NCBI GenBank assembly: GCA_019057375.1 | Contig: DXJF01000111.1 | Location: 1-18,301 of the forward strand | Reading direction: 5' to 3' | Source of the DNA: Candidatus Heimdallarchaeota archaeon | GTDB taxonomy: Archaea > Asgardarchaeota > Heimdallarchaeia > Heimdallarchaeales > Heimdallarchaeaceae | Length of the DNA stretch: 18,301 bases | Shown: one piece after another, positions 2,515 to 4,225 of the stretch | Layout of the letters: the number at the start of each line of letters is the position of its first letter | Numbering within the stretch: position 1 is the first letter of the stretch | The notes under the pieces: generated by a model | The model's database searches: none | The model's input: the letters and a program-made list of their open reading frames with translations, nothing else | Told to the model about the DNA's origin: nothing | Position numbers and translations under genes: made by a program

Positions 2515-2564
2515 GGTTAAACACTAAAGGGTTTTCTGCCGGAATAAGTAGGGGATTCTAACTC
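2515..2564. repeat. Direct repeat copy R1 (most diverged)
   Basis: GGTTAAACACTAAAGGGTTTTCTGCCGGAATAAGTAGGGGATTCTAACTC; 44/50 identical to R2 (3056-3105) by manual alignment. Confidence 0.92.
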
Positions 2565-2585
2565 AATTGTATCTAATTGAAAAAT

Positions 2586-2960
2586 CTACTTTTCTGCTGT
2601 TTTTTCATAATCCTTAACCTTTTTAACAACTTCCTCGTATCCTTGTTCTATTGCTAGATTAAACAACCAATCTTCTAAATTGTTTATATCTTCAAAGTAA
2701 CGGACTTTGCGTTTTTTCCTATAGGATACAACTTTTCGGAAAACCTCTATTCTTTGAGGGATTTGGTGGATTTCATCTTTATTATATATTCTAAAACCAT
2801 GATGGGTATATTCTATAGGAATAATCATCTTGGTCTCAGGGAGTTCCTTGAGTCTTAATTTAAGCTCCTCAATTTGCTCATTAGATAATTTCCAATAAGG
2901 ATCAGGTTTACCTGAATAAATGTCTAAAGAAACAAAGATTCCATAATCATCCTTTGTCAT
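2586..2960 (-). CDS. Conserved hypothetical protein, 124 aa (passenger gene between R1 and R2)
   Basis: AGGTGAT RBS just upstream. N-terminal VSLDIYSGKPDPYWKL resembles the VxLDxFSGRPNPxWxL motif I recall from uncharacterised bacterial proteins. Confidence 0.8.
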   Translation of the reverse strand: MTKDDYGIFVSLDIYSGKPDPYWKLSNEQIEELKLRLKELPETKMIIPIEYTHHGFRIYNKDEIHQIPQRIEVFRKVVSYRKKRKVRYFEDINNLEDWLFNLAIEQGYEEVVKKVKDYEKTAEK

Positions 2961-3055
2961 ATTATCACCTTTTATTACATTAATTTAGAATAAATACATT
3001 TCCTTCTAGAAAGGTCTAATATATCTAATTCGTTTTTAAAACTGAAAGAAATGGA

Positions 3056-3118
3056 GGTTAAACCCTAAAGGGTTTTCTGCCTGAACAGGAAGGGCATTCT
3101 AACTCGACGATTCAGGGT
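3056..3118. repeat. Direct repeat copy R2
   Basis: Core 3067-3107 is identical (41/41) to 3850-3890; similarity continues 8/11 over 3108-3118 vs 3891-3901. The left flank GGTTAAACCCT matches R1 at 10/11. Confidence 0.95.
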
Positions 3119-3783
3119 AATCTATTGTACTTTTTTAAGAGAATTACAAGAATTCCTAAGAAACAAGGAACTACTATAGAAAGAGCACTTGTACTTGTTG
3201 GAGTTGAAGAAGTTACTATTGGAAAAGTAAAAGTTTCATTTGCACCTGTATGAGTTACATGAATAGCAGTTCCATTAACAGAAATTATTGAGGAAAAATG
3301 GACATAATTATGTTCTCCTAAGCTGTCATCAAGATGAATCCAGATGGTGAAATTCCCATTAGGAAGAGAATCCAATGTATCATTTACAGAAAGATCAAAA
3401 GTCATCCTACCTTCTGAAATTCCAGGCTCAATAGTATGATTAGTAAACATGGCACCACAGTAGTGAGGTCCCCCTACAGAACCTTCATAATTTTCATTTT
3501 CAAACAATAAATTACCAGATGTGAAGACTAAGCAAGTTGTATGACTTAAAATATACAAAGTTTGTCCAGACGGATTGATAATCTCTATAGAAGATTCAAA
3601 CTCAAAGAATGTTTGATTTGGATAGTTTATTTTGTAAATCAAGCTAGGAGGGAAATCAATTTCAGTAATTCGCGTATAAATTGTGAAATTTGAAATTGAA
3701 GCTTGAGTGAAGAAAAAGTTACTAGCTAAGAGAAAGGAAAAGAAAAAACACAACAAAGAGAGATGTTTTAGAGTTCCTTTCAT
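3112..3783 (-). CDS. Secreted, membrane-anchored beta-rich protein, possibly Ig-like/BsuPI-like (passenger gene between R2 and R3)
   Basis: Hydrophobic N-terminal signal peptide; Ser/Thr linker (TSSTPTSTS); C-terminal TM helix followed by KKYNR; many NxS/T sequons. The BsuPI likeness rests only on EIINPSGQTL..C..C....TIEPG. Confidence 0.82.
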   Translation of the reverse strand: MKGTLKHLSLLCFFFSFLLASNFFFTQASISNFTIYTRITEIDFPPSLIYKINYPNQTFFEFESSIEIINPSGQTLYILSHTTCLVFTSGNLLFENENYEGSVGGPHYCGAMFTNHTIEPGISEGRMTFDLSVNDTLDSLPNGNFTIWIHLDDSLGEHNYVHFSSIISVNGTAIHVTHTGANETFTFPIVTSSTPTSTSALSIVVPCFLGILVILLKKYNRLP

Positions 3784-3839
3784 CTAGAAAACTAAGATAA
3801 ATATACTTATTTACTTTTCGAAATTTGAGAAGAAAGAAA

Positions 3840-3890
3840 GGTTTTCCCAAAAGGGTTTTCTGCCTGAACAGGAAGGGCATTCTAACTCGA
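3840..3890. repeat. Direct repeat copy R3, which is also the left arm of the structured element
   Basis: GGTTTTCCCAAAAGGGTTTTCTGCCTGAACAGGAAGGGCATTCTAACTCGA; core identical to R2. Confidence 0.95.
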
Positions 3891-4147
3891 TGCTTCGGGG
3901 TTGCGGTTGAGGGGGGTTCCAGGATCTGGTCAAGCAAGACCATACCTTTCTGGCAGACAGAAGATGTCTGGTCCTTTTTTTCAGACAAAATAAGTGTCTG
4001 ATTCCAGACCGAAGTCTGGTTCTGGGGGATTTCAGGCTTAGGAGGTCTTAACTAAGCCCAAATGGGGGTTCAAACCATCTAAAAAAGGGGTTCAACCTTG
4101 TCCCTGAGCATCGGATATCTCTTCCTGTTCAGTTTGCAGTCCCTTTT
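3849..4147. ncRNA. Unclassified ~300-nt GC-rich structured element (ncRNA or MITE/ssDNA hairpin element); strand unresolved
   Basis: Nested complementary segments: 3849-3855/4141-4147, 3860-3863/4136-4139, 3864-3875/4121-4132 (12 bp perfect), 3888-3894/4107-4113 and 3905-3910/4092-4097. Internal hairpins at 3927-3942, 3954-3970, 3981-4001, 4004-4019 and 4035-4058. 143/300 GC, against about 28% in the next 60-nt line I counted (4201-4260). Confidence 0.65.
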
Positions 4148-4209
4148 TTGACCTAACCATTTGGCTCCTAAATAGCCTGCCATTAACCAAATAAAGTTGC
4201 CCTTGAACA

Positions 4210-4225
4210 TATTTAAACTTTTTTG
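4210..4225 (-). promoter_or_regulatory. Archaeal BRE + TATA box pointing into the structured element
   Basis: The minus strand reads CAAAAAAG-TTTAAATA, matching purine-rich BRE plus TTTA(A/T)ATA. Predicted start near 4183-4188. Confidence 0.55.

Follow-up and report, generated by a model that had tools for sequence, protein, structure and literature searches.

Small gene cassettes appear to accrete behind the tail of a conserved RNA gene in Heimdall-group Asgard archaea

Islands inserted at the tmRNA gene ssrA of Dehalococcoides lie in tandem, measure about 10 kb and are bounded by a 20-bp repeat; 16 of 31 carry the large serine integrase DsiB, while about half are without an integration module (McMurdie et al. 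2011, PMC3146451). In the tRNA and tmRNA islands of Islander, integration splits the target, the insert restores the gene, the displaced fragment marks the end of the island, and a tyrosine integrase is by definition required within the island (PMC4383910). Integrons, which stack single-gene cassettes, have been reported in Archaea also (Ghaly et al. 2022, PMC9668308). Here, we describe a locus in an 18,301-nucleotide stretch of Candidatus Heimdallarchaeota archaeon DNA (the window; contig DXJF01000111.1). Among known prokaryotes, the Heimdall group of Asgard archaea is the closest to eukaryotes, and to our knowledge little is known about how its members gain genes. At this locus small cassettes appear to join the tail of a conserved RNA gene, to change order and to pass between species, and no integrase can be recognised; an insertion of this kind is present at a second, unrelated locus of the genome too. 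An enzyme-directed process would amount to a new system of site-specific recombination; one due to general homologous recombination would show that gene flow can use short conserved gene ends as landing pads. In both cases the junctions are precise and testable: the core is 31 bp long, empty sites can be matched with filled ones, and one cassette is present in two hosts. The locus is also likely a hypervariable region that breaks assemblies of Heimdall MAGs.

Three direct repeats with cores at 2526, 3067 and 3850 and spacings of 541 and 783 had been pointed out in an earlier note, and a repeat search recovered all of them (2492-2577, 3033-3118 and 3816-3901). Identity of R2 and R3 over 41 nt and five mismatches in 39 for R1 were likewise borne out, blastn giving 41/41 for R2 (3067-3107) against R3 (3850-3890) and 34/39 for R1 against R3; a looser homology of R2 and R3 extends over about 100 nt (3018-3118 versus 3800-3901, 80.6%). 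Each repeat is situated just beyond a minus-strand gene: the ORF at 3112-3783(-) has its TGA at 3112-3114, within the extended R2 homology, and the stop of the ORF at 2586-2960(-) is 17-22 nt away from R1. In a search of the 3.47-Mb, 89%-complete genome (G000), the repeats and the roughly 300-nt element that adjoins them were confined to this one locus, and so represent neither chance nor a dispersed repeat. The spread of a generic terminator, put forward as an alternative, fails. The features are as follows.

4210..4224, minus strand: BRE/TATA promoter of the RNA gene, reading AAAAAAG + TTTAAATA on the minus strand
3826..4186, minus strand: primary transcript of the structured non-coding RNA gene; ends approximate (about 25 nt past the TATA; T-rich tract)
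3858..4133, minus strand: predicted excised (circular) RNA of 276 nt, between two bulge-helix-bulge cleavage sites (4133->3858)
3850..3890, no strand assigned: R3, resident tail of the RNA gene, -33..+8 about the 3' cleavage site
3850-3880, within R3: minimal core common to all tail copies
3108..3849, minus strand: cassette 1, consisting of flank and probable promoter, 223-aa gene and arm of R2
3849-3784, minus strand: specific flank and probable promoter of cassette 1
3112-3783, minus strand: gene for a 223-aa secreted or membrane-anchored protein; no Pfam match
3067..3107, no strand assigned: R2, putative displaced tail copy, 41/41 to R3
2586..2960, minus strand: gene of cassette 2, 124 aa; no family match
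2526..2564, no strand assigned: R1, putative oldest displaced tail, 34/39 to R3
1605..2432, minus strand: gene for a polyacidic protein with the C-terminal 'Recombinase' DNA-binding domain of large serine recombinases, without catalytic domain

R3 is, as had been proposed, the arm of a fold-back of about 300 nt, closed by a 27-nt inverted repeat (3849-3875 with 4121-4147) and GC-rich (47-52% versus 33%), with fold z-scores of -4.4/-5.8, and this element is an undescribed minus-strand RNA gene conserved in the genus. The stem that closes it, recovered by RNAalifold from 18 sequences, has the helix, 3-nt bulge, 4-bp helix, 3-nt bulge and helix of a bulge-helix-bulge (BHB) splice motif in the canonical strand order, with a 5' arm (4143->4121) of GGG(A)-CUGC-AA|A-CUGAACAGGAAG and a 3' arm (3875->3853) of CUUCCUGUUCAG-GCAG-AA|A(A)-CCC. 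An extra A opposite the 3' bulge makes this the relaxed BHB form, a C-to-U change in the 4-bp helix is preserved as G-U in the same alignment, and both arms of the 12+4-bp stem are invariant. Such a motif suggests that the transcript probably undergoes excision and circularisation, the ring being predicted from the closing stem. The helix-then-bulge order is canonical only in the minus-strand RNA, and one-sided changes that leave many G-U pairs on that strand also fit; a plus-strand RNA was rejected, its bulge order being non-canonical and its G-U pairs turning into A-C mismatches. An A-rich BRE precedes the TATA on the minus strand only, and the BRE/TATA (18 of 18 aligned genomes) and the RNA body are conserved across these genomes. 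The BRE/TATA at 4210-4225 had been assigned to the array, which was mistaken: it serves the RNA gene itself, whose transcript begins about 25 nt downstream. The gene is present in 23 of the 24 genus genomes, always adjoins PAC2 and exists as one full-length copy wherever it is assembled whole. Rfam gave no match for the whole window at gathering thresholds, nor for 3750-4300 at E<=10, and ARAGORN reported no tRNA; SRP RNA and RNase P RNA were discarded as identities because both genes lie on other contigs. The repeat is the tail of this gene and runs from the last 33 nt or so of the predicted ring through the 3' splice half to the terminator; the original view of the repeats as 3'-end copies of a structured RNA gene is supported.

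The terminal inverted repeats of the element had also invited the idea of one-ended transposition by a MITE/PATE-like element, which together with an assembly artefact we consider refuted, with next to no probability left to either. The element is found once in the genome, where a MITE would be present in dispersed copies; it is syntenic, genus-conserved and equipped with its own promoter, and one end only is repeated, always at this locus. The same layout recurs in independent assemblies, and an artefact is ruled out by the metagenome contig L088, an independent assembly that holds the same cassette between two tails.

We compared the locus with 24 related genomes and, in all, about 25 loci from relatives and metagenome contigs. 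The gene frame is kept across these loci (PAC2, RNA gene, interval, in some the recombinase-domain or RD protein, a 105-aa gene and ELP3), and in the 24 genomes the interval behind the RNA gene ranges in length from nothing to about 27 kb and contains 0-6 spare tails, confirming that cassette number and content differ between relatives in the stretch from PAC2 to the recombinase-domain gene. Five close relatives whose RNAs are 87-97% identical have five different interval contents, G009 and G008 have empty sites, and the inserted blocks in G013 and most of those in G011 are without a detectable spare tail. Most array units measure 0.5-3 kb and hold 1-3 genes, and the small cassettes frequently code for secreted proteins; the 124-aa cassette gene is common to the window, G024 and G018 and is placed differently in G001. 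The statement that each interval holds one minus-strand gene stands within the window, where every array gene follows the direction of the RNA gene, but fails in the relatives' arrays, where genes next to spare tails are of mixed strand (about 13 co-directional versus 8 opposite). Since different cassettes occupy the same spot in related species, the locus is, judged from sequence comparison, a gene-swapping hot spot resembling bacterial tRNA/tmRNA islands and not a true integron.

Evidence that the cassettes move as units comes from two comparisons. The window from 3901 to 3038 and L088 from 1968 to 2828 are 96.3% identical over 865 nt, and this homology stops at the tails, the flanks being just 83.8% and 86.3% identical; in L088 the 223-aa cassette sits in a G024-like host and at a different array position. 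A block of a tail and a 158-aa gene adjoins the resident RNA in G004 and is found beyond a SecY cassette in G007. The junctions shared by the window and L088 are hybrid, in that the right tail copy has a cassette-specific arm (in cassette 1, the arm of R2) followed by a host-specific triplet and flank, and the left tail copy has a downstream flank that is cassette-specific in both genomes. All spare tails have -23..+8 in common, and homology boundaries at -23/-25 and +8/+9 recur in independent copies. Cassettes therefore move as units, via recombination within an invariant core of about 31 bp. A transposase-like target-site duplication was dismissed because the tail repeats vary in length between 31 and 100 nt. 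If a gene and its terminator had been duplicated locally in tandem, with subsequent gene conversion and no movement of cassettes, this could account for the 223-aa family, whose diverged paralogues occupy different cassettes within a single genome (three of them in G001), and for spare tails that bear each genome's own sequence variants. This scenario is nevertheless very unlikely, and already largely refuted, given that neighbouring cassettes hold unrelated genes, that a 96% cassette is set between 84-86% flanks at different array positions in two lineages, and that cassette order is shuffled between G004 and G007.

Accretion at the RNA-gene tail is the explanation we regard as probable: successive insertions would have left displaced tails, and cassettes would later have been lost, reordered or exchanged between tails. 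R3 is the gene's own tail, and R2 and R1 would be the tails displaced by two successive insertions. Each incoming cassette, presumably as a circular intermediate acted on by some enzyme, would bring its own tail copy, an attP-like mimic of about 30-100 bp; incoming and resident tails would recombine within the invariant core of about 31 bp (3850-3880), which would restore an intact RNA gene and shift the previous tail and older cassettes downstream. Tail-tail recombination at later times could bring about cassette loss, reordering and exchange between species. The 124-aa cassette would have arrived first, R1 having decayed since, and the 223-aa cassette would be recent, with R2 still equal to R3. 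Sequential insertion next to the element, as first proposed, fits these data, R2 and R3 being the youngest pair and R1 decayed, and the downstream flank of R2 (3066-3038) is of the ancestral resident type. Decay is expected if old copies are scars, and the R1 orthologues in G024 and G018 are more decayed still (21.8 and 9.7 bits). The blocks in G013 and G011 that are without a spare tail count against accretion, as do the absence of integrase and RVT matches from the genome and of the core from IMG/VR viral contigs. Elsewhere in the genome, a 4.8-kb insertion without an integrase is accompanied by a 165-nt duplicate of an MFS gene's 3' end, and its site is empty in G011 and G010; in all, 13 candidate loci with direct repeats at gene ends were recorded. 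As tail-duplicating insertion without an integrase is found at a protein-coding gene too, the locus seems to be one of the hot spots of a general process rather than a dedicated integron-like platform.

The spare tails might instead be retained for work at the RNA level, as ends of cassette transcripts or in alternative, cassette-containing circles, which could form in read-through transcripts if the 3' splice half of a tail paired with the only 5' half, joining 4133 to about 3075 (R2) or about 2534 (R1). The most conserved part of the spare tails is the inner-helix strand, the 4-bp helix and the bulge, the window genes all run in the direction of the RNA, and short T-tracts follow R3 and R2. 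We find this reading decidedly unlikely in view of the decay of old copies (R1 and its two orthologues) and the opposite strand of about a third of the neighbouring genes; it would in any case supplement DNA-level mobility and not substitute for it.

The search for an enzyme was extended to the whole genus. PF00589, PF16795 and RVT had no match anywhere in the 89%-complete genome, and an RT-mediated origin of the cassettes was set aside because RVT_1 was without a match there. Pfam found no recombinase domain among the array genes of the window, G001 and G004, in agreement with the claim that the arrays encode no recombinase; the remaining arrays were covered by ORF listing and a genus-wide PF00589 scan only, in which tyrosine integrases were sporadic and never on the locus contig. 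No tail copy was found in the examined flanks of any integrase or resolvase locus in the genus, and the core 20-mer had 0 matches in IMG/VR viral contigs; its metagenome matches in L080 and L082 are due to chance, in unrelated DNA. Two orthologue groups of serine recombinases of about 250 aa are present in 23 of 25 genomes, including the empty-site genomes G008 and G009; in G000, genus-conserved serine recombinases lie at C16:9820-10563, C56:5336-6025 and C127:13433-14179. The gene at 1605-2432, the distal border of the window's array, encodes a protein whose N-terminal half is a polyacidic low-complexity tract. Its PF07508 matches are weak, a profile of its C-terminal domain matches the recombinase domain of genuine large serine recombinases, and of the N-terminal resolvase, recombinase and zinc-ribbon set it has the recombinase domain only; the AlphaFold2 model of that region is poor (mean pLDDT 42). 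The RD protein gene borders the array in at least nine genomes or contigs and is absent from G008, G005, G017 and G022, although G017 has a cassette.

These genes are the candidates for a dedicated, integron-like capture system, in which one of the two genus-conserved serine recombinases, possibly helped by the adjacent RD protein, would act on the CCTG-TT-CAGG at the middle of the core to capture and reorder cassettes for the benefit of the host. The minimal 31-bp unit with its recurrent boundaries, the quasi-palindromic core (an imperfect inverted repeat around TT), the breadth of the two recombinase groups, the RD-only DNA-binding protein beside many arrays and the small cassettes for secreted proteins all agree with such a system. 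We judge it unlikely, however, as the serine recombinases have no link to the site and occur where it is empty, the RD protein is missing from four genomes of which one has a cassette, cassettes face either way, the promoter is that of the RNA gene, and an unrelated protein gene shows this architecture too, with another repeat. Quite unlikely, too, is an archaeal integron analogue in which one or more small, genus-conserved serine recombinases take up, shuffle and exchange single-gene cassettes among Heimdall species, acting on a 31-bp core that is also the 3' splice half-site of the RNA gene. On that joint reading the RD-only protein perhaps targets the recombinase(s) and the cassettes mostly provide secreted or surface proteins, and read-through transcripts with spare splice half-sites might yield cassette-containing circular RNAs. 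For accretion at the tail, the balance is roughly even between general homologous recombination over 30-100-bp tails and a site-specific recombinase acting in trans; with a stem invariant in both arms, the invariant core may reflect RNA function alone and not recognition by a recombinase.

Like an integron, the locus has small, mostly single-gene cassettes that each end in a recombination site, the newest beside a fixed platform site, and cassette content varies between relatives. It is nonetheless not an integron, contrary to the first suggestion that it could be an integron-like platform. There is no IntI (neither Pfam profile for it in G000, and the integrases of the genus off the locus contig), and no dedicated Pc promoter serves the cassettes; about a third of the genes beside spare tails point the other way. 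Instead of a diverse set of folding attC, every site repeats a single host sequence, and as ssDNA R1 and R2, taken together with their flanks, are no better folded than shuffles on either strand (z -0.01 to -1.07). The target gene, as distinct from the array, resembles the BHB-flanked circular RNAs of Archaea, of which the circular SRP RNA of Thermoproteus is reportedly an example, in that a BHB closing stem predicts excision and ligation of the RNA body; here there is no Rfam family and the ring is a prediction. With the Islander islands and with integrase-less, att-flanked, cis-mobilisable elements the locus shares a regenerated gene and displaced fragments at the ends, the 3' fragments lying downstream as direct repeats; unlike Islander islands, it has no island-borne integrase in the arrays examined, and no tyrosine integrase is detectable in the whole genome. 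From the Dehalococcoides ssrA islands it differs in the size of its units (mostly 0.5-3 kb) and repeat (31-100 bp), in the lack of an integrase in any array and in its target, an undescribed archaeal RNA with a splice motif. In both systems, however, a single-copy structured RNA gene is the target, insertions accumulate downstream, with a direct repeat of the 3' end bounding every one of them, and their number varies per strain; by this analogy we read the locus as tandem accretion at an RNA-gene att site.

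The three direct repeats described in the earlier note, with cores at 2526, 3067 and 3850, are real, and a repeat search places them and their surroundings as follows.

Repeats and genes of the array in the window
2492-2577, 3033-3118 and 3816-3901: R1, R2 and R3, the three copies of one repeat family, with spacings of 541 and 783
3112-3783, minus strand: ORF of 223 aa, whose TGA at 3112-3114 lies within the extended R2 homology
2586-2960, minus strand: ORF of 124 aa, ending about 20 nt from R1
3849-3875 and 4121-4147: inverted repeat of which R3 is one arm

By blastn against the whole assembly R2 and R3 are identical in 41/41 positions (3067-3107 and 3850-3890) and R1 matches R3 in 34/39, and the arms of R2 are about 75% identical around the 41/41 centre. 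Blastn found neither the repeat nor the ~300-nt element with the R3 arm anywhere else in the genome (3.47 Mb in 159 contigs, 89% complete). The BLASTN comparison proposed in the earlier note, of the core with its own genome and with relatives, confined it to a single locus, that of the RNA gene described below; among GTDB representatives a core 20-mer was present only at this locus of Heimdallarchaeota MAGs, and it was absent from the IMG/VR viral contigs. Readings of the repeats as a MITE or as an assembly artefact are excluded.

The inverted repeat encloses a GC-rich island (47-52% vs 33%) that folds better than shuffled sequences on both strands. This element was found by blastn in 23 of the 24 other genomes of the genus, always adjacent to the PAC2 gene and, wherever it was assembled whole, in one full-length copy, and essentially nothing of it was found by blastn in 16 genomes from other genera and families of the order. 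It matched no Rfam family; a tRNA identity was rejected by search, as were SRP RNA and RNase P RNA, both genes of the genome being located on other contigs. An alignment of 18 loci revealed an invariant AAAAAAG-TTTAAATA (BRE and TATA) on the minus strand at 4224-4210, about 25 nt ahead of where conservation of the body starts, and T-rich tracts after the opposite end. This conserved promoter, the minus-strand BRE/TATA that the earlier note placed at 4210-4225 upstream of the array, belongs to the RNA gene itself.

The closing stem of the element, as minus-strand RNA, is made up of two arms:

5' arm: GGG(A)-CUGC-AAA-CUGAACAGGAAG
3' arm: CUUCCUGUUCAG-GCAG-AAA(A)-CCC

Both RNA strands of the stem run in the order helix, 4-bp helix, 3-nt bulge, helix, which is the order derived here, from the known anticodon-intron pairing, for archaeal tRNA-intron bulge-helix-bulge (BHB) motifs; a plus-strand transcript would have the reverse, non-canonical bulge order and was rejected. 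The stem was recovered by RNAalifold. Its variable pairs mostly show one-sided changes to G-U, for instance C-to-U in the 4-bp helix of one relative (G021) and several AU/GU and GC/GU alternations, which on the opposite strand would be A-C mismatches. The motif and strand of the BHB were thereby verified at the level of sequence, and the predicted excised RNA would be 276 nt long (4133 to 3858), cut after the second bulge nucleotide and probably closed into a ring. Read as RNA, the repeat is the tail of the RNA gene: it takes in the final ~33 nt of the predicted ring, then the 3' splice half-motif, then a short hairpin and its U-rich tract. With the predicted 3' cleavage site as reference, R2 and R3 share the 41-nt block from -33 to +8. 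The predicted ring also carries ACCUCCU in the loop of a conserved hairpin (window 4040-4046, minus-strand RNA, inside the invariant AAGACCUCCUAAG), a 7-nt copy of the 16S rRNA 3'-end (anti-Shine-Dalgarno) sequence that is invariant in 18/18 aligned genomes.

The comparison took in about 25 loci, from relatives and from metagenome contigs, with control regions from the genome of the window and related genomes. The frame common to the genus consists of Cu-ATPase, solute-binding protein, PAC2, RNA gene, a variable interval, a polyacidic recombinase-domain protein (in some), a 105/109-aa gene, S30e (not in all) and ELP3. The interval ranges from nothing, where the 109-aa gene (G008) or the recombinase-domain gene (G009) directly follows the RNA, up to ~27 kb (G001), and in the five closest relatives, with RNA 87-97% identical, its contents are all different.

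Variable interval in the window and in relatives
G009: 0 kb
G011: 6.4 kb
G013: 1.8 kb, without spare tail
G024, G018: 247-aa zinc-ribbon membrane protein, 124-aa gene and decayed tail
Window: 223-aa and 124-aa cassettes

Cassette number and content between the PAC2 and recombinase-domain genes accordingly differ among relatives. A profile search detected between 0 and 6 displaced, or spare, tails per locus (six in G001, five in G004, three in G019), without exception at this locus, on the 3' side and in the orientation of the RNA. Recurring cargo comprises a 223-aa secreted family, a 247-aa membrane zinc-ribbon family, SecY paralogues, NosD/beta-helix proteins and an HTH regulator. The SecY paralogue (PF00344, E 1e-50) is a cassette in G004 (L013 3794-5080), G007 (L020 1139-2440) and G019 (L030 1890-3188), with a spare tail after the gene in 3/3 genomes and, in G004 and G019, a second copy close by on the side nearer the RNA. 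TnpB/Cas12f-like ORFs occur within the variable interval, next to it, or next to a gene of the 223-aa family (L016 4924-6183 in G005, so judged by its sequence alone; L090 10909-12843). In the window a 270-aa ORF at 685-1497 (plus strand) separates the 105-aa gene (322-639) from the recombinase-domain gene; of a 2-oxoacid dehydrogenase acyltransferase catalytic domain it encodes the C-terminal part alone. Its ~950-nt block is absent from G009 and from the metagenome contig L088 and has no spare tail alongside. Many MAG contigs begin or stop close to the RNA gene or to a spare tail, at most a few hundred bases away (L014, L015, L020, L021, L022, L026-L029), as expected of a repeat-rich, strain-variable region, which suggests repeats or strain heterogeneity behind these breaks.

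A homologue of the 223-aa protein, 95% identical, is encoded on L088, a JGI contig, where window 3901 to 3038 aligns to 1968-2828 at 96.3% over 865 nt, the homology running from inside one tail to just beyond the next. The flanking recombinase-domain and 105-aa genes are only 83.8% and 86.3% identical to those of the window, and the cassette is positioned between a spare tail, after other cassette genes, and the recombinase-domain gene, with the 124-aa cassette missing. The 223-aa cassette has therefore been exchanged between lineages, into different array positions. Judged by its flanking genes (96% and 95% protein identity to G024 vs 90% and 89% to the window), the host of L088 is G024-like. 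Likewise, a block of tail and 158-aa gene (85% identical) adjoins the resident RNA in G004 and lies beyond the SecY cassette, in reversed order, in G007. Cassettes thus move as units; pure local duplication, a reading to be set against these displacements, is very improbable.

The tail copy that lies downstream of the 223-aa gene begins, in the window as in L088, with a cassette-specific arm, CCCTGAATC(G/A)TCGAGTTAGAAT, where the resident RNA has CCCCGAAGCATCGAG..., and then turns to sequence of the host itself, first its variant triplet (GCC for the window, -TC for L088 and also for G024) and after that its downstream flank. The upstream copy continues in both hosts into a shared cassette-specific flank, TTTTGGGAAA..., leading to the gene. 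For this one cassette in two hosts the junctions show the pattern that reciprocal recombination leaves, B-O-P' / P-O-B', and place the exchange somewhere within -22 to +6. The window thereby adds direct evidence for inter-lineage cassette transfer, and resolved junctions. Homology of 24 spare tails to the resident tail of the same genome starts at -23 to -48 and ends at +8 to +58, and -23 to +8 (window 3850-3880) is contained in 24/24; short boundaries recur independently, at -23/-25 in four copies of three genomes and at +8/+9 in five. R1 and its G024 and G018 orthologues show progressive decay, and spare tails therefore behave as scars, not as selected elements. A role of the spare splice half-sites at the RNA level, which could coexist with any mode of insertion, is accordingly given little credence.

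Tandem accretion is the best reading of these data and a probable one. Cassettes bearing a mimic of the RNA gene's tail would recombine with the resident tail inside the invariant core, which would restore the RNA gene and displace the old tail; later tail-tail recombination would delete, reorder and export cassettes. We infer excision circles and current activity. The earlier note had suggested that this could be an integron-like capture platform with a non-attC site. The array is not an integron: it has no IntI, all its sites copy a single host sequence and fold as single strands no better than shuffles, the conserved promoter is that of the RNA gene, and roughly a third of the genes beside spare tails face the other way. 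A dedicated integron-like system is unlikely.

Under tandem accretion the exchange may be due to general homologous recombination or to a site-specific enzyme acting in trans, and the two are about evenly balanced. Heterogeneous boundaries, repeats that are long and different between loci and the lack of any integrase found speak for the former, the recurring 31-bp minimal unit and its quasi-palindromic centre CCTG-TT-CAGG for the latter. The genome of the window (89% complete) gave no match to Phage_integrase, the archaeal SSV-type integrase family or reverse transcriptase. Tyrosine integrases were present in 13/25 genomes of the genus (MAGs 72-92% complete), none of them on the locus contig; none was found in the array-rich G004, G007 and G019, no tail copy was found beside any tyrosine integrase of the genus, and three arrays scanned with Pfam held no integrase among their cargo. 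As a separate observation, no tyrosine recombinase (PF00589, PF16795), and hence no Xer-type dimer resolvase, was found in the genome of the window, while the control genomes all scored.

The 275-aa protein at 1605-2432 contains the DNA-binding 'Recombinase' domain of large serine recombinases, the profile of its C-terminal 140 residues matching that domain in Resolvase+Recombinase+Zn-ribbon proteins, and has a polyacidic tract (~135 residues of Glu/Asp-rich low complexity) in place of the catalytic domain. Many genomes conserve it as the distal border of the array (52-91% identity), and its nearest relatives in a library of 1.8 billion proteins are multi-HTH and recombinase-domain proteins likewise without a resolvase domain. 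The sole catalytic candidates found were ~250-aa serine recombinases with an N-terminal catalytic domain, four of them in this genome.

Serine recombinases by contig
C16:9820-10563
C56:5336-6025
C127:13433-14179
C118:7946-8644

Two orthologue groups of these occur in 23/25 genomes at 45-72% identity, a distribution that resembles vertical descent rather than transport by mobile elements, and no link to the array site was found.

When the genome was compared with itself, 13 more candidate loci came up, with local direct repeats (40-195 nt) that adjoin or overlap 1-5 ORFs. The one compared with relatives is on C77, where the 3'-terminal 165 nt of a gene for an MFS transporter (11927-12091) recur 4.8 kb downstream (16907-17071; L092). 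The insert encodes a CAP12/Pycsar-type TIR-domain protein, a subtilase and two unknowns, with no integrase, and G011 and G010 have the uninterrupted site, in which the two flanks overlap by exactly the repeat. It therefore seems that a more general integrase-less insertion process, one that duplicates the 3' end of its target, is at work, with the RNA-gene array as its busiest hot spot. Among the other loci, the repeat at C118:5872-6065 and 7365-7558 (L093) corresponds to the 3' end of an ABC-transporter gene, and its two copies enclose a gene for an M28 peptidase, beside a serine recombinase gene; C47 (49564/51707/54169) has three copies, like a small array, and further local repeats are found on C12 (68970/79204), C40, C72, C117 and C42.

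No publication on such an array was found, and the main paper on Heimdallarchaeum mobile elements reports only tRNA-site integration (PMC8813620). The closest described system is that of the tandem ssrA islands of Dehalococcoides, where 20-bp repeats of the end of the tmRNA gene vary in number per strain and only 16/31 islands have a serine integrase (PMC3146451). The general counterpart is the Islander definition, with its regenerated target and displaced fragment (PMC4383910). New to the array are the very small size of its cassettes, the complete lack of an integrase in the three arrays scanned with Pfam, and its target, a previously undescribed BHB-flanked RNA of Heimdall archaea.
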